From positions 1-51,286 of the forward strand of contig NIVC01004300.1 in assembly GCA_002269645.1 (NCBI GenBank): a stretch of DNA of 51,286 nucleotides, read 5' to 3'. The notes under the pieces were generated by a model. It made no database searches. It was not told the origin of the DNA and saw only the letters and a list, made by a program, of their open reading frames with translations. Source of the DNA: Macrostomum lignano (taxonomy: Eukaryota). Below are positions 7,661-51,286 of this stretch, piece after piece (positions within the stretch are counted from its first letter, which is position 1; each line of letters starts with the position of its first letter). The position numbers and the translations under genes are program-made.

Positions 7661-8389
7661 CTCGAGACTTAATCCAAAGACAAAGCATATCTAATCAAAT
7701 AATTACAAGTACACCCGCTTTCTATGTGATCTACGAGTATCTGAGTTATAAAACCATTACTCATTAGTTCCTTAATAAGACTAATAAATTCTTTAATTAC
7801 TGGATGTTTTAGAAAAGACACTGTATTAGTGATTAAATGCACTACATAAATATGATTACACATCCCTATGCCATCACTCGTGCCCTTCTACACATGCATT
7901 GTAATTTGGATATTTTTATCTGTTTTGTACTTTTGTCTCTCCATCAGGCCGCCATTCTTAGTCACAAGCAGCCTTCATTGTGTTTCCAAGCCCAGGAGGC
8001 GGGACCTCCGAAATCAAATGTGAAACATAAAAGCTCTCTGCAGTGAAAGTTCGCCTCTGTTTTTATCTGCCCCTACTCTGACAGGAAAATGATAATATAT
8101 TATGAGCCGCCTTGCAAATTCTGAGACAAAGGAAGAAAAAACCAAGTAGCTGCGGTTGACTTTGTGGTTTTTCGCAGGGAAAATTTTTTTTGTAAATCTT
8201 ATTATATTTTGACATTGCCACGCAGTTAATGCTACTCATTAGAATTCCAGTAGAGTGATCAGGCCTTTGGCTTCAAAATATAGTTTATAATCACAGCTTC
8301 AGTCAATGTAAATAGTAAATACGAGAACTCGTAACTTAAATAAATTTTTTTATAGAAAGTAATAGGACTACGAATGGGGAATTTCAGGG

Positions 8390-8850
8390 TGCTAGGGATG
8401 ATGGGATCTAGGTGTCCTAGGAATGGGATCTATAGGTGTTAGGAATGGCCGGATCTAAAGATCTTAGAAATGGGAACTAGAGATCTTAGGAATGGGAACT
8501 AGAGATCATAGGAATGGGGATCTAGAGATCTTAGGAATGGGGATCTAGAGATCTTAGGAATGGGGATCTAGAGGTGCTAGGGATGGGGATCTAGGGGTGC
8601 TAGGAATGGGTATCTAGGGGTGCTAGGGATTGGGATCTAGGGGTGCCAGGGATGGGTATCTAGGGGGGCTAGGGATGGGGATCTAGAGGTGCTAGGGATG
8701 GGAGCCAGGGGTGCTAGGGATGGGGATCTAGAGGTGCTAGGGATGGGAGCTAGGGGTGCTAGGGATGGGGATCTAGAGGTGCTAGGGATGGGAGCATAGG
8801 GGTGCTAGGGATGGGGATCTAGAGGTGCTAGGGATGGGAGCATAGGGGTG
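8390..8850. repeat. ~23-bp minisatellite (GGATCTAGAGGTGCTAGGGATGG)
   Basis: Direct reading, immediately downstream of the C-type lectin stop. Confidence 0.93.
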
Positions 8851-8874
8851 CCCTGACAGGGGGCGCAGACGCAG

Positions 8875-10116
8875 CTATATGACGGTCGGGCACTCGCAGA
8901 TGTAGCCGGTGCTGCTGGTACACCAGAAATCGTCAAGGCCATTGCTAAAGAAACTGTACAGTGCGGCGCAGCCCTGGGAGGGGGTGCCCGAGTCCGGCTG
9001 CCCGGGCTCCCAGATGCCACGGTCGATGGCGACGCCGCAGCCGTCCCAGACCCAGTTGGCCTTCTTGTCAGCGCTGGCAGCCAGCTGGTAGCCGCCCAGG
9101 TGGTAATTGACCCCTGGCTTCCTCAGCGACATCAGCCAGCGCAGCTCGGCGAGGTCCCCGACGACTGCCAGCCTGGCGAGGCCGCCATCCGCGGCGCAGG
9201 CGACCTTGGCGGTGGACCAGGTGGCAGTGTGGGAGCTCACCACCTTGTATGAGCTGCCGTTGCTGGGGTTTGGGGGTTGTATAGGCAGTTTTTTAAGGCA
9301 TTTTAAGGCAGACTCACTGATTGGTTGGTCTTTCTCTATAAATGACTGTGCCTCTATCCTACATGTAATATACAAAGACTGCCAACTGAGAGATGGGGGC
9401 CGTAGCCCAGTGGTCTAGTGCGACGCTGTATTGTGCCAGCGGCCCAGGCTCGATTCCAAGTGCAGTCACATTAATTTGGGGTTAAATTGGAGTCTCGGCT
9501 TGGCTCTGCTCGTGCAATTAACGCCATTGAGGGCCAAACCCCTCAAGTCACACTGAAGTGTACATGCCGAACGATAAATAAAGTTAGGGCCACTGTGCAC
9601 TCCTGTGTGAGTGTGTGCCTGTGCGTATGACTGCGTACGTATCCGCGCGCTTGTGTGTCTGCTCAGGGGAGTCGGCGGAATGGGCAGTAATGCCTCTCGC
9701 TGGTTGGTGACACGCCTACAAGCCTACCGAGAGTGAGAGTATCCCACAGGACAAAGACTGCCGTGCGCCGCTCCAGGCAACCGTCGTACAAAGATCTCGG
9801 CTCGGTCATCAGAGCCACAGGCAGCCGCCGTCGGGTCGCGGACGGCGTGGCTGCAAGCGTCGAAGACAAACAGGCGGCACCGGCAGGCGGGCAGGGCTTG
9901 GAAGGCCTGGCAGCGGTCGGTGGCGGCGCAGCGCAGGGCGCAAGACTCGGCGCCGCCGCAGACGCCTGGCAGCAGGCGCTGGAACTCAGGCCGAATACCG
10001 CAGGCGCTCGCGCCTCCGGCGGCGACTCGTTCGAAGCCCGAGCAGCCACCGGAGTCAGCTAGTTGCCATGGAGACCATAGCAGGAGCAGCAATGCAACCA
10101 CGCTAACAGTGAACAT
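8875..10116 (-). CDS. Secreted PAN/apple-like + C-type lectin protein; exons 10116-9728 and 9262-8875 (258 aa)
   Basis: Signal peptide MFTVSVVALLLLLWSPW; PAN-like SCALRCAATDRCQAF..CRL. The phase-2 splice CG|gtaggc...cccag|C yields CPVGYSHSRNGSSYKV (CTLD start), then TWSTAKVAC, WEPGQPD, CAAL, LDDFWC, ICEC. Exon lengths 389+388=777 nt. Confidence 0.85.
9395..9582 (+). mobile_element. tRNA-related SINE-like element within the lectin intron
   Basis: Pol III A-box TAGCCCAGTGG (9403-9413), B-box GGCTCGATTCC (9447-9457), tRNA-like 5' GGGGCCG, and AATAAATAAA tail. No clear TSD. Confidence 0.55.
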
Positions 10117-38995: not shown

Positions 38996-39282
38996 CTGGG
39001 AGCACAAAATTAAGGGTACCATTAAATTAGGGTTGCCGATTTGAAAATTGTTGAATATTACTTTTATCCTGTAATTTCTACATGTAACAAAAGTATGGAG
39101 CTTCTACTGTATGTTCAGTATGTTTTAAGCGTCAGTAATTGTTCAAATATTCGTGTAACAGAGGTCTGGTATTACAGCGAGGGCATATTCTTTATATTCA
39201 GTTTCTTCTCCTATCTGAATTCGAATTATCTAAAGAAGCATAACTTAGCTGACATTTAGACTTCAACTTTTAATGCTATGTA

Positions 39283-39668
39283 CAGGGTGTCCCATAAGTA
39301 ACTTTACAACTTGTTTCGTGAATAACTTTGTGATTAATGCTTGGATCCCCACCAGATTTTAGCATAGGAAAATATATAGAAAATGGTTTTTTTGACACCA
39401 AAAGCATGTTCATACGTTAAAAAATACAGTCCGTTCAGGGTCCTTCGATGTGGCCACCGCCGTTTGTAAGGCAGGCCTCCAGCCGCCGCGGAAAGTCCAG
39501 CAGTTGGTAAGCGTCTCAGGCGAAATCTGGGCCTGATATGAACATGCTTTTGGTGTCAAAAAATCCCTTTTCTATATATTTTCCTATGCTAAAATCTGGT
39601 TGGGATCCAAGCATTAATCACAAAGTTATTCACGAAACAAGTTGTAAAGTTACTTATGGGACACCCTG
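39283..39668 (-). mobile_element. Tc1/mariner internal-deletion derivative (386 bp)
   Basis: TA|CAGGGTGTCCCATAAG...CTTATGGGACACCCTG|TA with ~130-bp near-perfect TIRs. The core on the minus strand reads AQISPETLTNC/LDFPRRLEACLTNGGGHIEGP*, like a mariner transposase C-terminus. Confidence 0.88.
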
Positions 39669-41570
39669 TATATATTTATATAAAACAAATAAAATGTGAA
39701 TTTTTTTAAAAGCTGCATATGAAATTTGATAAATCAATTTTATAAAACTTTAAACTGGACAGCAATAATTTTACTTTTAAAAGTCATGGGAATTGTCAAT
39801 TACAGTACATAAGTCAGACACAGTCAGATAAAATCCGTAGTCTCAAAATATTGAGCGAAATTTGTCAGAAGATGCGTATGTCAGCTATAAATGCGACTAC
39901 TAAAGCATCATTGAGGTATGAACTCAATTTTAATAGATTGCATAGTAAATCAAAATAAAAACATTCGGGAGTCTAGAAGTATAGAAGCAGCATAGAAGCA
40001 GTCTGTAGAGTCTGTACGACTGTATCCCAAACTTCAGAGAACAGAAAAGCCAAAAAAGACAAAACTATGCACACTTTCAAATACTTATGCTATAAATATT
40101 CAAGAACAATAAATTTACCTTTTCTTTTAACAGTCATCATTCATTCGCTTTACTTCGCTAAAGACGATAGTAATTTTTTCATACTATGTTATTTTTCGTC
40201 CCTTTGACTTTTCGCTATAAATTCTTTGTCCAAAACCAAAGCAATAGATAAATTCGTTATCAAAGAACTAAAGAAAACTAAAAGTACTTGTTTTTTATAT
40301 AGATATATTTTAAAAGAATTTTAGAAGAGATTTTTAAAGCAAATTTTATAAAAAATAGGAAAATAAGAAAAGAAACACCTGAAGGCAGCCGGGAAAAAGG
40401 AAACTTATGGCTAATTCGAAATCTTCATCGTCAGTGTAAATACTTAAGTAACTTTAACAAATTCAACAACGAAGCAGTAATAATAGCATCTCAGGCTGAA
40501 TTGATTACGCTTTTGTTAACGATAAAAAAAATAAAATAAATATTGCCTTTCAAAAACAATAAAAAATTTCTGTTTAAACCAAGCCTGACTATTTAACTTT
40601 TCCGTGTTCTATCAATTTATAAAACGGGCGGTAAACACTTGAAGAGGGGATTCTTTAAGTTTTAGAATAAGTATCTTTATATACATACGATAATTCCATG
40701 AAGGGATTTCGCTGCAAAAAGTGAAATGGTTATTTTGTTTCGAATATAAATGCAATTTACACATTTAAACTATGCTCCTCAGACCTCAGCTCATTGACTG
40801 ACAGATCCAGAAATAGGGGCAAGAGGCCATGCTTTGTTCAGCTGAGCCAAAATTTTATTTTTATATTTTTTTGTCCTGCTCAAGAAATTTCTGGACCTAT
40901 GATACTTATTTTGTAGAAACTTAGTATTATAGGCTGTCAGAATTGTCCTACTCAATTTTTTAGGTGTAAAATAAAATATTTGTTATAGTTGTTTTAAATT
41001 TTTTTGAGATATAATATGTTTCCTATATGGAAAATTTTTTTAAGTTAAATAGAATTTTTATGTGAATATATTTGATTTCTATTGTTTTTCTAAATCTGAA
41101 AATTTGTATACAAGACAAATATTTATAGCATGATTATGCATATTATGACAAAGCCAACCTAAAAATGGAAGCAAAACAAAAAGCTATGCCTCAGATGAAT
41201 ATTCAAAATAGGTTTATAGGCAGCTATTATCATGAATTCAAGTAGCAAAAGACAAGGTAGATAATTTATAATTTAATTTAACTTTTATAGTCGATAAAAC
41301 TCTCATTTATATCCAAGTGGTTTTATCTAAACTTCATATTCAATTTTATTTAAGGATAGAATGTTTTGCTCAAGTACAAGAATATTTTTAATTTTTCAGC
41401 ATCATTTTAATCTTATATTTGGGCTAATAATATACTTACTAAATGCTAAATATTTAATTGAAGGTTCATTTAATTTCTAATCATTGTCTGTTTTACTGAT
41501 TAAAAAATCTGAATCTTTTCAAAACTGACTACTTCAGCAAGCCAGGCCAGGGCGCTACTGACTGAATAGA

Positions 41571-41969
41571 ATGCTTCGCAAAATCATTGCAACCACATCT
41601 GCTCCCGCTGCAGTTGGGCCATACAGCCAGGCAGTGCAGCTCGGCCAGACTCTGTACATGTCTGGTCAGATTGGCCTCAACCCTGCCACCATGCAGATGG
41701 CCGGGCCAGATGTTGAGTCGCAGGCTGAGCAGGTGCTGATTAACATGGCGGCTGTGCTGAAAGCGGCTGGCTCAGACATGAGCAAGGTGGTGAAGACCAC
41801 GGTGCTGCTGGCCGATATGAACGACTTTGCCAGGGTGAACGCCATCTACGCCAAGCATTTCAGCGAGCCATTCCCAGCCAGGGCCTGCTACCAGGCAGCT
41901 GGCTTGCCGAAGCAGGCCCTGGTGGAGATTGAGGCTGTAGCCGCTGTTGGCGACGTTAAAGACGAATGA
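41571..41969 (+). CDS. RIDA: RidA / YjgF-YER057c-UK114 enamine-imine deaminase, intronless CDS
   Basis: APAAVGPYSQAV, SGQIG, VVKTTVLLADMNDF..VN.IY, FPARACYQ, LP...VEIEAVA; AATAAA near 42236. Confidence 0.95.
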   Translation: MLRKIIATTSAPAAVGPYSQAVQLGQTLYMSGQIGLNPATMQMAGPDVESQAEQVLINMAAVLKAAGSDMSKVVKTTVLLADMNDFARVNAIYAKHFSEPFPARACYQAAGLPKQALVEIEAVAAVGDVKDE

Positions 41970-42299
41970 TGAAGCTTAATGAATTATGCTTGACAAAGTT
42001 GATCTAATATTGATTTGCAGTTACATCTGATTCAACACTATTGTTGTCACTAGCAATATCCAAGAATGATCCAAGAATGCTTTGGCGCCTTAATTGCTAG
42101 ACTGTCCTGGTGATTCAACTCAAAGTAGTGGCTGTTTTTACTGAGCACACGCAATCGAACACAACTGTATTCCTTTTCTAACATTAATTGTAGACACATA
42201 CAGGCATTGTTAATCATTCCTTTACACTATAAATCAATAAATTTTAGTAAGTTAATAGAAATAATAGTCTTCCAATTTCGCACTTAAATGTTCGAGGCC

Positions 42300-42569
42300 A
42301 GTAGTATAGAAAAGGACGCTTCTAGACCCAGAGCACTTTTTTAATGACCGTTTTAAGGGTCTAGAGGGGGGACACGGGGGGTAAATAAAAAAACACATCT
42401 AAACACCATTAATACATCTAATCACCCATAATCACCCCTAACAATAAAAATCACTTCCCAACACTTCCAAACACTCCCTAACACCCCCCCGTGTCCCCCC
42501 TCTTAAGACCTTACAAACGGCCATTAAAATAAGGTCTGATCTAGAAGCGTCTTTTTCTATACTACTACT
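42300..42569. repeat. Imperfect ~85-bp inverted repeat (42300-42382 / 42483-42569) around a 100-nt G-free loop
   Basis: AGTAGTATAGAAAAGGACGCTTCTAGA...GAGGGGGGACACGGGGGGT versus its reverse complement ending TCTAGAAGCGTCTTTTTCTATACTACTACT. Confidence 0.9.
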
Positions 42570-42651
42570 CTATAACCCCTTGCCCGCGCCGCAGGCGCGA
42601 AGGGTCGGAAAGAATAGAAGCTATTTATAGTCAGCTCACCTACCCACCCAA

Positions 42652-42749
42652 CATTCCATTTAGACCAGATTTTAGACCAAATTTTTGAAAACGAAAACCA
42701 AAACGATAGTCTAGTTTTGTTTGGTCTAAAATCTGGTCTAAATGGAATG
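42652..42749. repeat. Perfect 30-bp inverted repeat with 38-nt spacer
   Basis: CATTCCATTTAGACCAGATTTTAGACCAAA (42652-42681) and TTTGGTCTAAAATCTGGTCTAAATGGAATG (42720-42749). Confidence 0.95.
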
Positions 42750-42787
42750 CAGACAATCTTTTTCTGTTACTAAAAATAGAACAAAAA

Positions 42788-43186
42788 ATGACACACGTTA
42801 CACATATGCAAAATCTGAATGAATTGCAGGTAGGAGACCCAGTTGAATACCGAGGTGAGGGGCTTTTTGATGTGGTTGGAACAGCAGCAAATTTTGTTAA
42901 AGACAATATGGGGCTTATAGGGCAAGCTGGCTCTGCAGCCGGCTCTATAACAAATGCTGTAAAAGGAGGAATTGAAGCAGCTAGAGCGGCAGAAGAACTA
43001 AAGAAATTGAGAGATTTTAACGACACCCTCTCACAAATAAATGCAATAAAAGATTTAAAGCTGGCACAAGCCGCACAACCAACAGAAACCCCCACGAAAA
43101 GCGCACCAATAAGTAATAAAGATATTCAGGATTTTAATAAAATGTTAAATACTATTAAAGGTGGAAAAGGATTAAAGAAATTTTAA
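42788..43186 (+). CDS. Polinton Gly/Ala-rich putative virion core/precursor protein (132 aa)
   Basis: YRGEGLF, VKGGI and IKGGKG motifs, amphipathic helical stretch, A-rich start context. Confidence 0.6.
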   Translation: MTHVTHMQNLNELQVGDPVEYRGEGLFDVVGTAANFVKDNMGLIGQAGSAAGSITNAVKGGIEAARAAEELKKLRDFNDTLSQINAIKDLKLAQAAQPTETPTKSAPISNKDIQDFNKMLNTIKGGKGLKKF

Positions 43187-43196
43187 CAATATAAAA

Positions 43197-44157
43197 ATGG
43201 ACACAGATAACGACCGCTTATATTTTATAGGAGAAATTGTAGATACTTTAGATCTAGATGATAATAAACATAGCCACACAATGTTAAAAAGATTGGATCG
43301 ATTAGGTAAAAAGTTTGACTACGACATCGATACATTTAAACTCGCAGCAAAATATGCACAAGAAGGAAGGCCAATATCCTTTAAGAATCGCGGCAGAAAT
43401 TATAGGTTGACAGACTCCGATGTGAAATTTTTAATGGAGACTCACACTAAAAAGGACGGCGGATTACTACCCATTCTACCGCTTCTTTTAGGACTTGGCG
43501 CAGCTGGAGCAGCCGGTTTAGCCGGAAAAAGAATTCATGATAATGTAAAACAGCTAGGAGAGTTAAGAGCGAAACAGGGGGGCAATAATTTTTGCAGGAA
43601 TTGGAGCAGCTGGAGGAGTTGCTGGCGGAGCAGCTGGAATTGCAAAAGCAGTAAATGACAAAAAAGCTGCGGACGAAAAAGCTAAAAGAGAGGCCGAATT
43701 TCAAAGACAGCAAATAACGCAGGACGCACAATTTAAACAAAAACTTATCGATACAATTAATAGTAGTTCAGCAACAGCTGAGCAAAAAAGAAATGCAGAA
43801 GCTAGGTTATCAGCCGGAAAAGGTTTACTCTTGCAAGGAACAAATCACGGGAATGGTTTGGTACTAAAAGGAACAACCCAAGGAAGTGGAGTTGTCGCAG
43901 ATAAACTACATGAATTTGGCCAAACTTTAGAAAAAACGGGTGAGAAAGCTAAAGGATTTTTTGACAATATTGGATCCAATTTTAGACCAGCTGTTCAGAA
44001 AATTTTTAATAAATTAGGAAAAGATTTTAACATCATTGAAAAACACGACGGAAGCGGATTATATCTCGAAATGCGACCAAAAGCAGGTTCAGGAATTTTC
44101 TTAAATTCAAACGTTATGGGCAATGGATTGCTATTACCAAAAGCAGATCTCGAATAG
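43197..44157 (+). CDS. Polinton putative membrane-active virion precursor (~320 aa), joined across a +1 shift at the G6 run (~43577-43582)
   Basis: KDGGLLPILPLLLGLGAAG then, after removing one G, AIIFAGIGAAGGVAGGAAGIAKAVND, a coiled segment, and six G-[KNS]-G-hydrophobic motifs (GKGLLL, GNGLVL, GSGVVA, GSGLYL, GSGIFL, GNGLLL). The downstream frame is open to 44157. Confidence 0.7.
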
Positions 44158-44240
44158 GCTCCTGGGGGAGGGTCTGGACACCAAAAACACAAAATTAAAA
44201 AATCAATAATTCAAACATTATATAAATTTTATTCTATAAA

Positions 44241-47200
44241 ATGGAAGCAATTTTAGCTCAAATCGACAACCCAGAACTTAGAGCGCAATTAATAGCTCAA
44301 ATCGATGCACAACGAATTGCCGATAGGGCTGAAATAGAAGCAAGAATTAGGGCAGAAAATGAGATACGTTTAGAAAGACAATTAAATGATATTAATAACC
44401 CCCAACCACAAGTACAAAATGGAGCTGAAGTAATATATATAGATATAGATATAAATACAAATTATAAAGAATATTTTAAACAAATGAAAGATAAATTAAA
44501 GACTATATTAAACAATTATACTATAAGGCCAAATAACAAACGACAGCCAATTAAGTATAAAATAGAAGTTGAAACAGAATTTAAAAAACCAAATATTCTT
44601 AATGCAAATTCAGAAATTGAAGTAATAAATAACTTTTCACAAGAATCTATAAGACATTCTATCAATGAGAAATTACAACAATCAATTCGATCAAATAGAA
44701 GCTGAGTTTGATGAATGGATAGATAAGATGACAGAAAACGGATCTGGGTTTATATTTGTATCCTGTAATTCAGCAATAGTAAAGATTGCACCTATAGAAA
44801 TTCTTAAAGGACGATCACATATGAAGCTCAAATTTAAATCACCTATGATTATAAATCCAGACAATAAAGATAATAAATGTTTATTATGGTGTTTATTAAT
44901 TCATAAATATCACAATCAAGTAGAATCACATTAATAAAATATATAATTATAGACAATATGAGGATGAAATAATAATGAAAAACATCTCATACCCAGTAGC
45001 AATAGATGATATATATAAGATTGAAAAAATGAATGGTTTAAATATTAATGTTTTTACAATTGAAGAACCAAAGATCTAGAAGAAATTCAGCAGGTCGATC
45101 CAGAATGGTATAAGAAAAACTGTTATCTTGTTAAGCCAGCAACTGATATAACAGCACCAGATCAAATCGATCTTTTGTACATGCAGCGCGAAAATGAAAC
45201 ACATTATATATACATAAAAGATATTAGTTCTTTTTTAAGAGAAAATAGAAATAGATATCCACTATGTAGAAATTGTTTTACATTTAAAAAGGATGAAACA
45301 GCTCTTAAAAACCACCAACGATTTTGTTTAGATCACAAATTTACTAATGCTATAATGCCAGCATCTGAAGATGCAACCCTAAAGTTCCAACAACATTATA
45401 TGGCAGTTAAAAAACCAATAGTAATATATGCTGATTTTGAAGCAACAAATGTTCCCTTAAAAGAATCACAGACGGTATCTGATGGTGAATGCACAAAAAA
45501 ATTAGCACAACAGTTTCCTAATAGTTATTGTATATATGTACACTCCGTAGCTGATCATATATTTAAATCAAGGATGATTACTTACCACGGTAATGATGCA
45601 GCTAAGCACATGGCAGAATCATTAGTAAATGTATTTGAATATATTCAAAATCAATATGATAAATTATCAAAAAATATTAATATGACAAATAAGGATAGAG
45701 ACAATTATAAAAATGCAACAAATTGTTTTATGTGCAAAAGATATTTAAGTAAGAAAAATAAGATACGAGAACATTGTCATCTAACAGGAAATTATCGAGG
45801 GGCAGCATGTAGATCATGTAATGCAAAAGAAGGAAAAGGATGTAAGGAAATACCAGTATTTTTTCATAATGGTTCCGGATATGATTTTCATTTCTTAGTT
45901 CGAGAATTGCTTCATTTAGGAAAGGATGAATATGAAATAAATATATTACCTAAAACATCAGAAAATTACATATCAATAACATATGGTAAGAAATACTCCC
46001 ATCTAGTTTTTCTAGATTCCTTGAGATTCTTATCAACATCTTTAGCAAATGTTGTTTCATCATTAGTTCCAAAACCATGGGATTTAGAAATAGTAAAGAA
46101 AAACTTTCCAATCTTATTGAATCGTTTCAAAAAGAAAAACTATCCGAGGAAGAACTAATGCTATTAACTCGTAAGGGCATCTACCCATATGAATATGTAA
46201 CATCTGAAGACGTATTTTTCATACCGAATTACCCCCAATTGAAAAGTTTTATTCAACATTATCACAAACAAACATAAGTGAATCGGATTATGAACACGCT
46301 CAAAAAGTATGGAAATACTTTAATTGTAAAACATTTAAAGATTATCATAATCTATATCTTAAAGCAGATGTTCTCCTATTAGCTGATGCATTTGAAAACT
46401 TTAGGAATCATACATATGAGAATTTTAAAATTGATCCCGCATATTGTTTCAGTGCACCGGGATTAACATGGGCTTGTGGTTTGAAACATACAGATGTTAA
46501 GATTGATTTACTAACTGATCATGATATGTTGTTAATGATTGAGAGAGGAATTCGCGGCGGATTCTCGGGTGTACTAGGAGATAGATATACTAAAGTAAAT
46601 AATAAGTATCTTCCAAATTATAATAAAAAAGAAAAATCATCATATGTATTATATCTAGATGCAAACAATTTATACGGTGGTTGTATGAAACAAAAATTAC
46701 CAATAGCTGATTTCCAATGGGAAGATGACCCCGATTATTACAAAAATATTCCCGAAGGAAGGGGCTGTATCGTAGAAGTGGATTTGCAATATACTCGGGA
46801 AGCAAAAGCAAAAACATATAAATATCCTTTAGCTCCAGAGCATTGTTCAGTTAATGAAGATGATTTATCACAAACACAAAAAGATTATCTTAAAGCAGAT
46901 AATGCAAAACATCTAGCAACAAAAAAATTAATATTAAATTTACATGATAAGAAAAACTATGTAGTGCATTATAAGCTTCTACAATTTTATGAAAAACAGG
47001 GATTAAAAGTGTCTAAAGTACATCGAACAATATCGTTTATTGAGGAAGATTGGTTAGCTAAATATATTGACTTTAATTCAAATCAGAGACAGATGTCAAA
47101 AACAAATTTTGAGAAAGATTATTGGAAATTAATGAATAATGCTTTTTATGGAAAAACGGTTGAAAATATTAGAGATAGAACCCAATTCCATTTAGAAAAG

Positions 47201-48189
47201 GATATTGATAAAGCAAAGAAATATTTCTCAAAACCTAACTTTAAAGACTTTATAAAATTTGATGATAACTTTATGGGTATTCATATGAGAAATAAAACAA
47301 CAAAATTTCTTAAACCAATATTTATTGGAATGGTTGTTTTAGATTATGCAAAGCTGGTAATGTATGAATATTATTATGATGTTATAAATAAAACATGGCC
47401 AGATAACTATCCAATATATGCAGACACCGACAGTTTGGTATTTAAGGTTGAAACAGATGACGGCGAAGCCGCGAACCAAAGGTTCGATGTCTATAAAGAT
47501 ATGGAAAAAATTAAGGATACACTGGATACCTCCGACTATCCGGATAACCATCCTTTAAAATCAGATCAAAATAAAAAAGTTGTACTTAAAATGAAAGATG
47601 AATTAAATAGCAAAATCATAACCGAGTTTATAGCAATAAGATCAAAATGCTATGCATTTAAGGTTTTAGGACAGGAGGGAGAGGTAAAAAAAATAAAAGG
47701 GGTATCAAGAGCAGCAGTAAAAAAGATAACATTTGATGATTATAAAAACGTACTTTTAGATTACCTTAATACAATTGAAAATTATCATGCTCCACAATAT
47801 CGATTAAATTCAGATAAGCATCAGATGTTTGTCATCGAGACAGATAAAAAACATTAAGTCCATTTGATGATAAAAGATATTTAGATGATAAAATTAAAAC
47901 ATATCCATATGGTTTAAAAGAAGAGATAAAAAATATGATAAAAGATAAAAAACAAAAAGAAGATATAATAAGTAAATATAATGAATACAAAGCGGCAATA
48001 AATAATTATTATTACGATTGTGATTGTGAATCCGAATGTGATTGTGAATATAATACATTTCTAGAATATGAAAAAGATATAGATAATTATTATTCAACAT
48101 TTCCAAAAGAACTTAAAAAATTAAATAAGGAAAAAGTCTTGAATAACTGGAAGAGATTAACAGAAAAATTACTTATATCGCGACGTTAA
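44241..48189 (+). CDS. polB: Protein-primed family B DNA polymerase (pPolB), ~1,300 aa, interrupted by about six 1-nt indels (~44660-44700, 44930, 45075, 46140, 46220, 47850)
   Basis: ENGSGFIF; INPDNKDNKCLLWC...HYIYIKD; ExoI YADFE; CFMC...EHCHLTGNYRGAACRSCN; ExoII HNGSGYD; FLDS; RKGIYPYEY; ExoIII YLKADV; IRGG; motif A YLDANNLYG; motif B KLMNNAFYGK; motif C YADTDS; KKIKGV; LSPFDDKRY. Confidence 0.95.
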
Positions 48190-48423
48190 AAAAACTAAAG
48201 CATGTAATTGTTTGAGCATAATATCCATTTCGATTTCATATATATTGAAGCCAATTTCCTCGCAGTCATCAGGGTAACTTAAACAATCCTTTATTTTTTT
48301 CCTAAGTTTTTTTATTTTTCTAACCAATCTATCTATTTCAATTTCAATTACTATTTCAGCATAAACAATATCTTGTCTTAAAAAACGTTTTCTTTTATCT
48401 ATCTCATATCGGATGGGAAACAT
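48169..48423 (-). CDS. Small basic/coiled hypothetical viral protein (84 aa)
   Basis: ORF packed tail-to-tail with the pPolB end; no recognisable motif. Confidence 0.45.
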   Translation of the reverse strand: MFPIRYEIDKRKRFLRQDIVYAEIVIEIEIDRLVRKIKKLRKKIKDCLSYPDDCEEIGFNIYEIEMDIMLKQLHALVFLTSRYK

Positions 48424-48514
48424 ATCGTCCCATACTCATGATATTTCTGAGATATAATTATATTTATTTTTTTATTAATATCATTAAGTTCACGCTCTTT
48501 AGTGATAAGGATTT

Positions 48515-48874
48515 TTATCGTATCCATTTTCTTATAAAAAATTTACTTCGTTCGTCATCCTCCCAAACAGCCGCCAATTTTACAGTCCTATCACTCTTTT
48601 TATTATTTGTTTGTTTTAGTTTAAATTGCAATCCACCCTCGTTGCTGTATTTCATAACAAACGCTTTAGGTTTATTAATAACTAAAACAGGAAAATTTTT
48701 AACATCATCTCCGCTTAGACATAAAATTTTTTGCCCATCTAATTGTAAAAATATTGATTGAAGCCCAATAAATTTAACCTGTCTCAAACATATAATATTA
48801 TATTCTTTATTCTCCAACATATTGGGTGTGAGATAATTAATCACATTAGAATCGGTTTTGAACCAGCTCTCCAT
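48515..48874 (-). CDS. Hypothetical viral protein (~119 aa, probable start MESWF)
   Basis: Open frame with TAAAAATG start context; beta-rich composition. Confidence 0.55.
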   Translation of the reverse strand: MESWFKTDSNVINYLTPNMLENKEYNIICLRQVKFIGLQSIFLQLDGQKILCLSGDDVKNFPVLVINKPKAFVMKYSNEGGLQFKLKQTNNKKSDRTVKLAAVWEDDERSKFFIRKWIR

Positions 48875-48899
48875 TTTTAATCTAAAAAAATAAAAAAAA

Positions 48900-49064
48900 A
48901 TGAAAGACATTTATGTTTGTAATAAATGTAATGTGACTATGCACAGAGGGCAAACAGCAAACGGAGATATATATCATATGTGTTATTCATGTTCTAAAAT
49001 ATATCAATTTGAAAAAAAAAAAAGATTGAAAACTCATATTACTATTTTAAAAACACAATTTTAA
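48900..49064 (+). CDS. 54-aa zinc-ribbon protein (below the ORF-track cutoff)
   Basis: MKDIYVCNKCNVTMHRGQTANGDIYHMCYSCSKIYQFEKKKRLKTHITILKTQF*: CxxC-x17-CxxC, ATG preceded by poly-A. Confidence 0.6.
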   Translation: MKDIYVCNKCNVTMHRGQTANGDIYHMCYSCSKIYQFEKKKRLKTHITILKTQF

Positions 49065-49394
49065 GAAATCTTACAAGAGACATTTCTGATCCAATTTTAA
49101 TTCCGGAAATAATGTTTATTTATATAATAACTTTTTCCATTTAAATAAAGGAAAGGGATTAAGTTCGAAAGACTCCGAAAGGATTTTAATTTTAGTTGGA
49201 TATTATTTCAATTTTCTTATTCGAGAGAATACAAAGTTTATAAGGATAGGTAACATACCTAACGAAATGTTATTGAAAAAGTCATTGGAATTTTTATGTA
49301 TTGATAAAAAATTTAAACCTAGGATCAGAAGAGAGTTACCACTTTGGGAAGAATATATAACATATGCATTAAATAAACTAAACAACCTGAAGTT

Positions 49395-50030
49395 CTACAG
49401 TACTTCCTGACCGCGGCTTTGTGCCCCAGTAGCAATAGTTTCAGGTTTGTATTCTATAGTTTCTATCGGAGGAGCTTTGGGTTTGTCCAAACGCAATTCC
49501 TTCAATTCCATATCGGTAAAAGTTTCAACATCTAAAATTCTATTTCTATCTTTTAAATATTTTTCATATAACTCAACCGCGGTTGATAATTCATGAATCG
49601 TTATCTCTCCATCATCCAATATTTTTTGCACATATAAATATAATTGATTTTTATATTGTTTTGCAACATCTCTTAAAGATTTATATTTTTCCTTTCTTTT
49701 TTTAAGATATAATTTAATTGCTAAAAGTATTGATAAGTTTCTGATCATTTCAAAACCTGATATTGAGCCAATTGAAATACCTAAAAATAATTGAGATAAA
49801 TTAAGAGTTGGAATAGATTGTAAAATACCTAAAACGATTACACATAACATTGATAAACTTCCAAATCCAATATTGAAAAAATCCATATTTCTTATATGGT
49901 TTGAAACTCTTCTTACTTTTTTAGTATATAAATCATAATCATAGTTAATACGATCAACATTACTCAACATCTGACCTTTACGTTGGTTGAACCGGTCGCG
50001 TTCCCATTTATCTGCTTCAGATACCGACAT
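49395..50030 (-). CDS. Polinton-type two-TM membrane protein (211 aa)
   Basis: Hydrophobic pair FFNIGFGSLSMLCVIVLGIL / LFLGISIGSISGFEMIRNLSILLAI, then basic KKRKEKY and ILDDGEITIHE motif of the kind seen in Maverick accessory TM proteins. Confidence 0.65.
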   Translation of the reverse strand: MSVSEADKWERDRFNQRKGQMLSNVDRINYDYDLYTKKVRRVSNHIRNMDFFNIGFGSLSMLCVIVLGILQSIPTLNLSQLFLGISIGSISGFEMIRNLSILLAIKLYLKKRKEKYKSLRDVAKQYKNQLYLYVQKILDDGEITIHELSTAVELYEKYLKDRNRILDVETFTDMELKELRLDKPKAPPIETIEYKPETIATGAQSRGQEVL

Positions 50031-50038
50031 TCTCGTCT

Positions 50039-50339
50039 ATTTTTAATAGCACCAAAATGAATTCCCACGCTCTTTGGGGATTTGCCCGAGCTCAATAGGT
50101 ATTGTATTGGAGTTATTCTTTCTTTTTTCTCCCATTTAAATCCTATTTTCCAAAACTCTTGAAGTATAATATGATTTTTTAACAATTTAATTAATTCTTG
50201 AAGTTTCTTATTATCCTGAACATTTACAGTACTAAATAAAATTTGGTATGAGATTGAAGTTTTTATATTTGATTCTTGTTTAGGAATAGGAATAATAACA
50301 TTTATTATTTGTCTCATCGATGGGTTCTACTAAAGCCAT
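50039..50339 (-). CDS. Hypothetical viral protein (~100 aa), probably frameshifted near its start and end
   Basis: TATAAAAATG start (MALVEPIDET) at 50339 shifts into the 49964-50317 frame (INVIIPIPKQE...). Confidence 0.4.
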
Positions 50340-50454
50340 TTTTATATATAAATATCGAACCTTTGGTTCGCGACTTAGGCTTTAGCCTTAGGCGATTTCG
50401 GTTTGTGGCCGTTCCAAATATGCGGTCGCAGCAAAATCATATCCTGCTGATGTG

Positions 50455-51286
50455 CTACCACAAACGGCTGCACCGAATAAAATGTGCAGCATCCGATCCT
50501 CCAGTTCGAGCACCAAAACCCATAAGAGTCCCGTTTTATCTAAAGTTCCCAAGTTCCACTATCATATGTAAAAAAGTTTTGCCCAATTAGCGTATATGTA
50601 TTAGCTGATACATTGTATGTGCTTATTTGATACCAAACTCTTTGATTTAAAATATTAATTTCAAAAAGATGCCAATCGCCGTTATCAATATTTGCATAAG
50701 TTATCGTTTGATCGGCGTCGTTAAGAACATCATTACGAACTGTTGCTCCGTCTGATTTTATATTGCTCCAAACAACCCCAACTCTATCAGCCACTCACTC
50801 GCAAATCAAGCCGCGCGCGGGTTGTTAACCCGGATCCAAATTCACTTGTTGGCGTTCGTGACAATATGCATAAAACCAAACAGCGTCAGCACCATCTCCT
50901 GTAGAATTAGCGACTCGGAAATAGAAGGAGGCGGAGATATTACGAAAATGGGTGAAATTAAATTGCAACGCTCCAGACTGACCACTTGCTTCATCAGTAA
51001 TTCTAGCTCCATTTTGATAATCAATATAAGTACGTACCAACAAAACTTCCAGTTGGAAAAATATCACCGGCTGTGGTTGGGTTTTGATATCCAGTCCAAT
51101 TGCAAATTACAGGCTCGTACAAAGCGGCATCGATTGCAGGTATTCCATCCAATTTTATTTTATCATTAAAGACATTCGGCCATCCGCCGTTTGTGTTACT
51201 CGCGTGTCAACATAACCTTTAGTAACAACAAACTGTTATGTTTATAGTAGAGATATTAGTAATTGTATTACCCCCATATCAATTGA
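50455..51286 (-). CDS. Fibre-like protein with C-terminal L-type (legume/ConA-like) lectin domain; multiply frameshifted, 5' end outside the window
   Basis: Frame-hopping translation gives IDMGGNTITNI...VVTKGYVD (fibre shaft repeat), then RITDEASGQSGALQF, FYFRVANSTGDGADAVWFY, IDNGDWHLFEI and MGFGARTGGSDAAHFIR..LW*, in legume-lectin order. Confidence 0.65.

Follow-up and report, generated by a model that had tools for sequence, protein, structure and literature searches.

The last part of a 51,286-nt contig from Macrostomum lignano (NIVC01004300.1, called the window here at its full length) reads as an integrated Beta-class Polinton, which is to say an adintovirus-like provirus. Its left ~9 kb (42300-51286, 8,987 bp) lies within the window and starts just past a host RidA gene. 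We put the probability of this reading at roughly 85%. The element itself is of an ordinary kind, as its type of polymerase is common and has thousands of relatives. Nor is it unusual for an invertebrate genome to contain a Polinton, and what could be of interest is the structure of its end. What sets the element apart is a recurrent fold-back end and a polymerase clade marked by its nuclease. The terminus is repeated in inverted orientation within 300 bp of its own tip, and this arrangement recurs in distant relatives with different end motifs. That makes it a small cis-element that can be surveyed and tested. The second lead is the polymerase clade, in which the nuclease signature resembles that of T4 and two members bear inteins. 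The features discussed are collected in Table 1.

Family assignment of the insertion

The window has no integrase or capsid gene, no right terminal inverted repeat (TIR) and no second copy of the target site duplication (TSD), and the polymerase, the end motif and the relatives are therefore what places the element in the family. The terminus AGTAGT is at 42300-42305 with GAGGCC immediately 5' of it. Polintons are 13-25 kb long and end in tandem repeats with a unit of 1-3 bp, and (AGT)2 is the commonest 5' end of Mavericks (PMC8097293).

The protein-primed polymerase (pPolB) gene falls into seven stop-free pieces, and eight relatives aligned with tblastn cover 44635-47916 collinearly in shifting frames. 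A preliminary description of this DNA had already listed a pPolB, and the gene retains its vOTU cysteine motif, ExoI-III, PolA-C and a C-terminal motif. By a motif-level test the vOTU Cys motif at 44869 and a His-Tyr are spaced as in the relatives. The order of vOTU, exonuclease and palm is that of polintons, where TP-vOTU-EXO-PALM and its role have been described (PMC11161782). None of the polymerase pieces scanned matches PF03175 at E<=0.1, and some full-length relatives match it weakly. Since there is no PF03175 match and there is an OTU domain, the polymerase belongs to Starrett's Beta class (PMC8502044). Of 8,000 long candidates scored against a 549-residue core, 6,291 are related at E<=1e-20, and of 8,000 scored shorter candidates 6,441 are related at E<=1e-30. 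The named relatives among the matches listed are from Stylophora, Nematostella, Anneissia, Mytilus and spiders (42-51% identity). The named ones of the 240 matches listed include no nematode or oomycete names, and such references are absent from the tree described below. There is no near-identical sibling copy among the matches listed, the best identity being 62% over part of the piece and 57% over all of it. The core has no match among PDB sequences or in a set of phages and bacterial plasmids that leaves fungal plasmids outside.

Relatives supply the genes that would be expected further right. When contigs of bacteria and archaea in a reference genome collection were scanned, 51 related loci emerged (L001-L051, 29-52% identity), ten of them from one metagenome-assembled genome (MAG). 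These are apparently eukaryote-derived or viral contigs misbinned into MAGs. When 29 open reading frames (ORFs) from nine loci were scanned, an rve integrase was found in four (L028, L012, L010, L005) and an A32 ATPase in five. L028 carries double-jelly-roll (DJR) capsid, PLA2 and pX genes too. The polymerases of these linked-gene relatives are 36-48% identical to the window's. L009 and L010 have non-coding DNA, then AGTAGT, then the polymerase, which is the layout of the window. A polymerase of the window's own clade (P0003) and a relative of its pX-like gene (P0127) are both on 12,963-nt contigs, which suggests a single contig. The proposal of a Polinton or adintovirus-like virus inserted past RidA therefore stands on the (AGT)2 end, the pPolB and relatives linked to integrase, ATPase and capsid genes.

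The adintovirus features present are a pX-type gene, an animal host and the OTU motif in PolB. Three relatives (P0121-P0123) carry the pX-like gene whole, as one protein of 272-319 aa each. The gene has 24 matches, many with PF05829 (the adenovirus protein X domain), and the window's own pX piece has no direct Pfam pX match. That the host is an animal follows from its genes in the window (Bcl-2, rhomboid, C-type lectin, kinase, actin, ankyrin) and from the matches of RidA.

Compared with known systems, the element shares with the Beta adintoviruses of group 1 (PMC8502044) a vOTU pPolB without PF03175, an (AGT)2 end, a pX-like gene, convergent gene blocks and an animal host. It differs from them in that its polymerase falls in a clade of its own with strong support and is not the terminal gene, being preceded by two pX-type/GG-motif genes, and in having a fibre whose head is probably lectin-like. 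A fold-back end is not described in the accessible part of that paper. Vertebrate Mavericks (PMC8097293) have the (AGT)2 end, two gene modules and intronless genes in common with it, and the main text on them does not mention an inner inverted copy of the end. Polintons are known across many animal phyla (PMC10748475). The preliminary description called such elements little characterised in flatworms. This is only partly right: Orthopolintovirales insertions in Rhabditophora have been reported (10.1101/2025.04.19.649669), though among the papers searched a single one names both Polinton and Macrostomum, each of them once.

Some points weigh against a Beta-class Polinton. No integrase, A32 ATPase, protease or capsid gene is in the 9 kb of element within the window. 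The polymerase tree holds no Alpha-class, plasmid or reference Beta polymerase, so the window's clade is defined in it but has no root. One can imagine that the element is a relative without a capsid or an integrase, akin to a linear plasmid or to some other midsize linear DNA virus. Neither gene is seen, modules swap freely in this group (PMC8502044, PMC10748475), and the accessory genes have no tblastn match in any of the 51 related loci. However, the pX-like and fibre-like genes imply a virion and the precise (AGT)2 junction implies the action of an integrase, so we regard such a relative as very improbable. A grouping with plasmid-type polymerases is not borne out, given virion-type pX and fibre genes and best relatives that are polinton polymerases in a tree from which plasmid polymerases are absent. 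We give equally little credence to an assembly that joined a free virus to a host contig. The sequence does stop within the element, with frame changes densest there, but the canonical end motif is precisely where the two meet, as in L009 and L010, and host and element share no repeat at the join.

If the element is a Beta-class Polinton, it very probably works as its family does, by integrase insertion, terminal-protein priming, capsid packaging and binding of glycans by the fibre. A retroviral-type integrase encoded further right would have inserted it past the 3' end of RidA with a 6-bp duplication. The vOTU protease would release the N-terminal terminal-protein domain of the polymerase, and this domain would prime synthesis at the end and realign on the AGT repeats, as proposed for protein priming on terminal repeats (PMC8097293). 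The products of capsid, ATPase and protease genes further right would package the genome together with a GG-cleaved pX-like core protein. The fibre would bind a surface glycan.

The fold-back end

The arms of the fold-back (42300-42381 and 42485-42566) are identical at 75 of 86 aligned columns (87%), and the inner copy ends 267 bp inside the element. Their mismatches concentrate in the middle of the arm, with a single one in the outer 27 bp and none in the inner 19 bp. The computed fold of the unit has -66.6 kcal/mol (z -13.7), and 0 of 200 shuffles were equally stable. Within the window the terminal 490 bp match nothing but themselves.

The same structure was sought in the window and the 51 related loci at every (AGT)2, (AG)3 and (AC)3A site (181, 238 and 287 sites, 706 in total). 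A site passed if 19 or more of 22 nt recurred in inverted orientation no more than 700 nt away. Three units pass, namely the window terminus, L009 5614-5742 and L005 7748-7906. The test was also applied to 39,654 host positions in the window, and the 122 that pass are all inside one miniature transposable element with inverted repeats (MITE). The L009 unit is 129 bp long, is of the AGT type and has a z of -11.7. Upstream of it are 5.6 kb of nearly ORF-free DNA, and the polymerase begins 150 nt downstream. The hexamer after the inner arm is alike in the two (CTATAA in the window, CTAAAA in L009), and the outer flanks differ. The L005 unit (159 bp, 66 nt before the polymerase) has an AC-type end motif and is a weaker case than L009. 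The AC-type motif is known from swamp-eel Mavericks (PMC8097293).

We found no description of a fold-back Polinton end in the literature, which here means the accessible parts of PMC8097293, PMC8502044, PMC11131425, PMC11071296, PMC5803895, PMC6431247, PMC11296320 and 10.1101/2022.07.12.499685; the original Polinton papers (Kapitonov and Jurka 2006, Pritham 2007), Repbase and supplements are outside this scope, and any of these may describe it. The structure is invisible to such TIR finders as require long loops, and a coral survey used a kilobase-scale minimum (PMC11131425).

It must be said that several observations count against a general fold-back end. The sample is tiny, and only three related loci show an end beside the polymerase. 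One of them, L010, has the (AGT)2 end and no inner copy within 700 nt, with a 100-base gap lying there. In L005 the unit may be a host MITE with no relation to the element, and all three loci lie outside the window's own polymerase clade. Most of the remaining related loci are internal fragments.

Some minor observations concern the same region. A G-quadruplex may form at the loop (42382-42484), where the - strand has six runs of at least 3 G (the arm included) along with TTAGGG units like those of telomeres. A short GC-rich hairpin lies at 42585-42599 within the AT-rich element. In L012 two direct copies of a Polinton-like end motif of ~28 nt (241 and 393, a spacing of 152 bp) lie at the gene cluster's edge.

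The polymerase clade and possible roles of the end

A FastTree phylogeny of the window piece and 120 listed long matches puts the window in a clade of 50 of the 121 sequences with support 1.0. The named proteins from coral, anemone, crinoid and spider are outside this clade, and its only named member in a larger tree is a Mytilus edulis protein. Nine of the related loci were placed in the tree, none of them in the clade. Two members (P0016, P0036) carry LAGLIDADG inteins at the PolC motif and nest with the Mytilus protein. To our knowledge inteins in animal-associated Polintons would be unusual. They suggested a protist origin, which is unsupported given where both sequences nest.

The endonuclease VII (EndoVII)-like insert in the exonuclease region has an unbroken reading frame and the signature C-xx-C-N-xx-E. 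A profile of the clade finds T4 endonuclease VII in PDB at E 9.5e-4; the single sequence gives E 0.1. The insert is present in 108 of 120 relatives, and its form separates the clade from the rest. Within the clade 42 of 49 members match the motif pattern, and all 42 have C-xx-C-N-xx-E like T4. Outside it 66 of 71 match, and each of these 66 reads H-xx-C-N and lacks the Glu, so that the T4 type is found in none of them. The catalytic residues of T4 EndoVII are Asp40, His41, Asn62 and Glu65. In place of Asp40 the window has Glu, as do 40 of the 42 clade members.

An EndoVII domain was earlier noted in Sf Maverick polymerases (PMC5803895). The pPolB2-HNH Polintons of nematodes and oomycetes (PMC10748475) likewise have an HNH-type nuclease domain within the polymerase. 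Theirs are group 2 polymerases, and for this reason the label pPolB2 is not used for the window's enzyme. L009 also holds a free-standing HNH_3 nuclease gene.

As for what the end does, we tentatively suggest that the fold-back is a local panhandle origin, although we would rate this somewhat below an even chance. It would be a miniature of the Polinton 'racket', the single-stranded panhandle between two far ends that was proposed from sequence analysis (PMC4196379). A strand displaced in replication, or looped out of the chromosome, would pair its tip with the inner copy 267 nt away. A duplex origin would thereby be rebuilt locally, without the far end 15-20 kb away. Adenoviruses and tectiviruses share with the window protein-primed initiation on short terminal repeats and panhandle origins, but their panhandle joins two distant ends whereas the window's copy of the end motif lies less than 300 bp from the same end. 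The termini of parvoviruses such as adeno-associated virus (AAV) are self-complementary, and the 3' terminus can pair and be extended. Unlike these viruses, the window has no visible Rep/NS1 nuclease-helicase gene, and it has a protein-priming polymerase and a 103-nt loop. Some casposon TIRs contain internal palindromes (PMC4046053).

A local origin has to be weighed against less purposeful histories. A template switch near the end could have copied the terminus back, leaving a duplicate that then drifted without a job. The arms do have 11 unlike columns out of 86 and unequal numbers of AGT, replication by strand displacement as in adenoviruses leaves single strands free to copy back, and the end motifs of L012 are duplicated as well, if as direct repeats. 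On the other side, the differences lie mid-arm and nearly spare the outer 27 bp and inner 19 bp, and L009, whose polymerase is 40% identical, has the same layout and a similar hexamer after the inner arm. We think a neutral scar of this kind unlikely, though it deserves to be taken seriously. It is more of a stretch to read 42300-42569 as a separate 270-bp non-autonomous mini-Polinton, with a left end joined to a right end, sitting at or in the end of a larger element. Such a unit would start with (AGT)2 and end with (ACT)3, as this one does, and its size is MITE-like. But the flanking hexamers differ, with no recurrence of GAGGCC after the inner arm, and no other end motif was found upstream of the unit or between it and the first gene. 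The L009 unit too is directly followed by polinton genes, and we consider the mini-Polinton improbable.

The fold-back might also be a signal for cutting or self-priming. A cruciform at the host boundary would be cut by the EndoVII-like domain, either for excision of the element or for resolution of replication products, or the 3' end would prime itself as in parvoviruses. EndoVII resolves four-way junctions, and the T4 pattern is kept by every motif-matched member of the clade and by none outside it. The extra AGT of the inner arm could have been copied by a paired 3' end. However, L009 has the fold-back together with the other nuclease type, which shows that the features are not linked. With a loop of 103 nt a cruciform is unfavourable to extrude, the Asp40 position is altered as described, and inserts of this kind have been interpreted as relics of homing endonucleases (PMC11161782). 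We are doubtful of a cutting or self-priming signal for these reasons. The broader claim would be that many Beta-class Polintons have self-complementary ends, with an inner inverted copy of the origin at each end that lets a strand end fold into a functional origin or a junction, and that in the window's clade the EndoVII-like domain cuts this structure at the host boundary. This is a long shot, and if true it would supply the missing step for exit of Polintons from the chromosome and for the protein-primed start.

Remaining genes, state of the copy and host flank

Table 1. Positions of the features discussed, in window coordinates
Feature	Positions	Strand	Basis or remark
Host RidA/UK114 gene	41571..41969	+	PF01042 E 2e-42; PDB matches; flank, outside the element
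Candidate left copy of 6-bp TSD, GAGGCC	42294..42299	+	Sequence; right end beyond the window
Left terminus, outer fold-back arm, begins (AGT)2	42300..42381	+	Sequence, inverted-repeat comparison
Fold-back loop, 103 nt	42382..42484		+ strand G-free (A48 C34 T21), degenerate short repeats
Inner inverted copy of terminal ~82 bp	42485..42569	-	Three AGT units, two in the outer arm
Second subterminal inverted repeat	42652..42749		Perfect 30-bp arms, 38 nt apart, directly before first ORF
132-aa ORF, G-x-G/GG motifs, amphipathic helix	42788..43186	+	ORF and motif analysis, no family match
Protein X (mu)-like core gene	43197..44157	+	tblastn with P0121-P0123, Pfam in relatives; one frame change near 43585
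Protein-primed polymerase (pPolB) gene, frameshifted	44241..47915	+	Stop-free segments (first at 44241), tblastn with relatives, motifs
Endonuclease VII-like (HNH) zinc domain, inserted in exonuclease region	45673..45864	+	PF02945 E 1.4e-7
In-frame insertion of ~9 codons after PolC, holds short GC-rich hairpin	47455..47495	+	Comparison with relatives
Two short ORFs, 84 and 131 aa	48169..48910	-	ORF list; no family match
211-aa membrane protein, helical hairpin	49395..50030	-	Hydropathy, low-confidence model
ORF of ~117 aa	49964..50340	-	ORF list; no family match
Second hairpin-motif copy, between fibre-like gene and next ORF	50347..50376	-	19 nt exact, 27/30 identical
Fibre-like gene, runs off the window	50390..51286	-	Relatives P0265 (E 9e-17), P0266

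The genes form two convergent blocks, as previously described, one on the + strand (42788-48189) and one on the - strand (48169-51286), which meet at 48169-48189. G-x-G/GG motifs are confirmed in both genes at the left. Judged by its sequence, the 132-aa product is a probable protease-processed virion core or membrane-active protein. The closest pX-like relatives (P0121-P0123) have two tandem GG-hydrophobic segments versus one in shorter pX proteins.

Pfam, PHROGs and PADLOC gave no name to any of the accessory ORFs, and Rfam has 0 matches in the window. The 211-aa product has one clear hydrophobic segment, in keeping with the membrane protein first proposed. An Atlas search gives a SLATT-like two-transmembrane (2TM) lead with a score of 0.82, to be taken as a lead only. 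This protein has no Pfam or PADLOC match, its model has a predicted local distance difference test (pLDDT) score of 53.5 with a blank fold search, and it could not be aligned with L009's small ORF of membrane type.

The fibre-like gene was recognised correctly from the start, as P0265 and P0266 align with it collinearly. P0265 has a repeat shared with phage proteins (PHROG E 2e-9) and weak fibre-type matches in PDB. The product is probably a fibre-type repeat followed by a beta-rich lectin-like head. Atlas leads for the head (0.86-0.89, leads only) are mostly of one clan, the ConA-like lectins. The P0265 model has a pLDDT of 32.7 and weak matches only (best Foldseek E 4e-3, best Z 6.1). Among the related loci, L008 has at 8137-9942 a gene of fibre type whose product includes an S74 intramolecular chaperone domain.

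A 19-nt palindromic motif, a hairpin that looks mobile, occurs in exactly two copies in the window (47470 on the + strand, 50354 on the - strand) versus 0.03 expected. The first copy is in the insertion after PolC, where the spacing is 35 residues in the window versus 26-27 in 115 of 120 relatives. The peptide of the insertion is absent at that site in all relatives compared, and none of the 51 related loci has the motif. L009 has a GC-rich repeat of its own in three copies (8534, 11471 and 12015), one of them in frame within the polymerase gene. Our guess is that the motif is a transcript-end or promoter signal. Another short GC-rich hairpin, at 50818-50832, is located where the fibre gene changes frame.

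There are about 14 frame breaks over the three mapped genes. The polymerase has six in ~3.6 kb, pX has one, and the fibre gene has about seven in ~0.65 kb (six from a k-mer map, one by eye). Stops flanked by matches occur at three sites, each where the frame is displaced, and there is no unexplained nonsense codon. Because the frameshifts come without nonsense codons and are densest at the end of the sequence, read errors fit better than neutral decay. We think it likely that most of the frameshifts are read errors, which become denser toward the sequence end, in which case the copy could be of more recent origin and less damaged than it appears. The break in pX weighs against this view. It coincides with about nine missing codons, suggesting that at least one lesion is real.

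The junction at 42300 is an architectural break without a GC step. The preliminary description spoke of a sharp compositional break, but GC content is 30.5% in the host flank (39000-41570) versus 31.7% in the element, and 3-mer likelihoods run across 42300 without a step. Its architectural break is evident, since the DNA is gene-dense from that point to the end of the window, and its gap of 330 nt between the RidA stop and the element was measured correctly. GC content at third codon positions (GC3) does contrast, at 0.69-0.95 in three host genes versus 0.18-0.27 in six pieces of element genes. AT skew and gene density also set the element apart from host DNA. The top PDB matches of the RidA coding sequence are UK114/RidA proteins named as for animal enzymes, and a putative poly(A) signal lies at 42236, ~60 nt upstream of the element.

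Further out, the host DNA of 1-37466 is crowded with microsatellites and minisatellites (Tandem Repeats Finder gives 37 rows for the window). Its GC3-rich genes encode a Bcl-2 family protein, an EF-hand rhomboid, a C-type lectin, a protein kinase, actin and an ankyrin protein. A MITE of ~400 bp is at 39277-39674, with 138-bp arms that are 97% complementary and a TA on either side. It looks like a derivative of a Tc1/mariner element.

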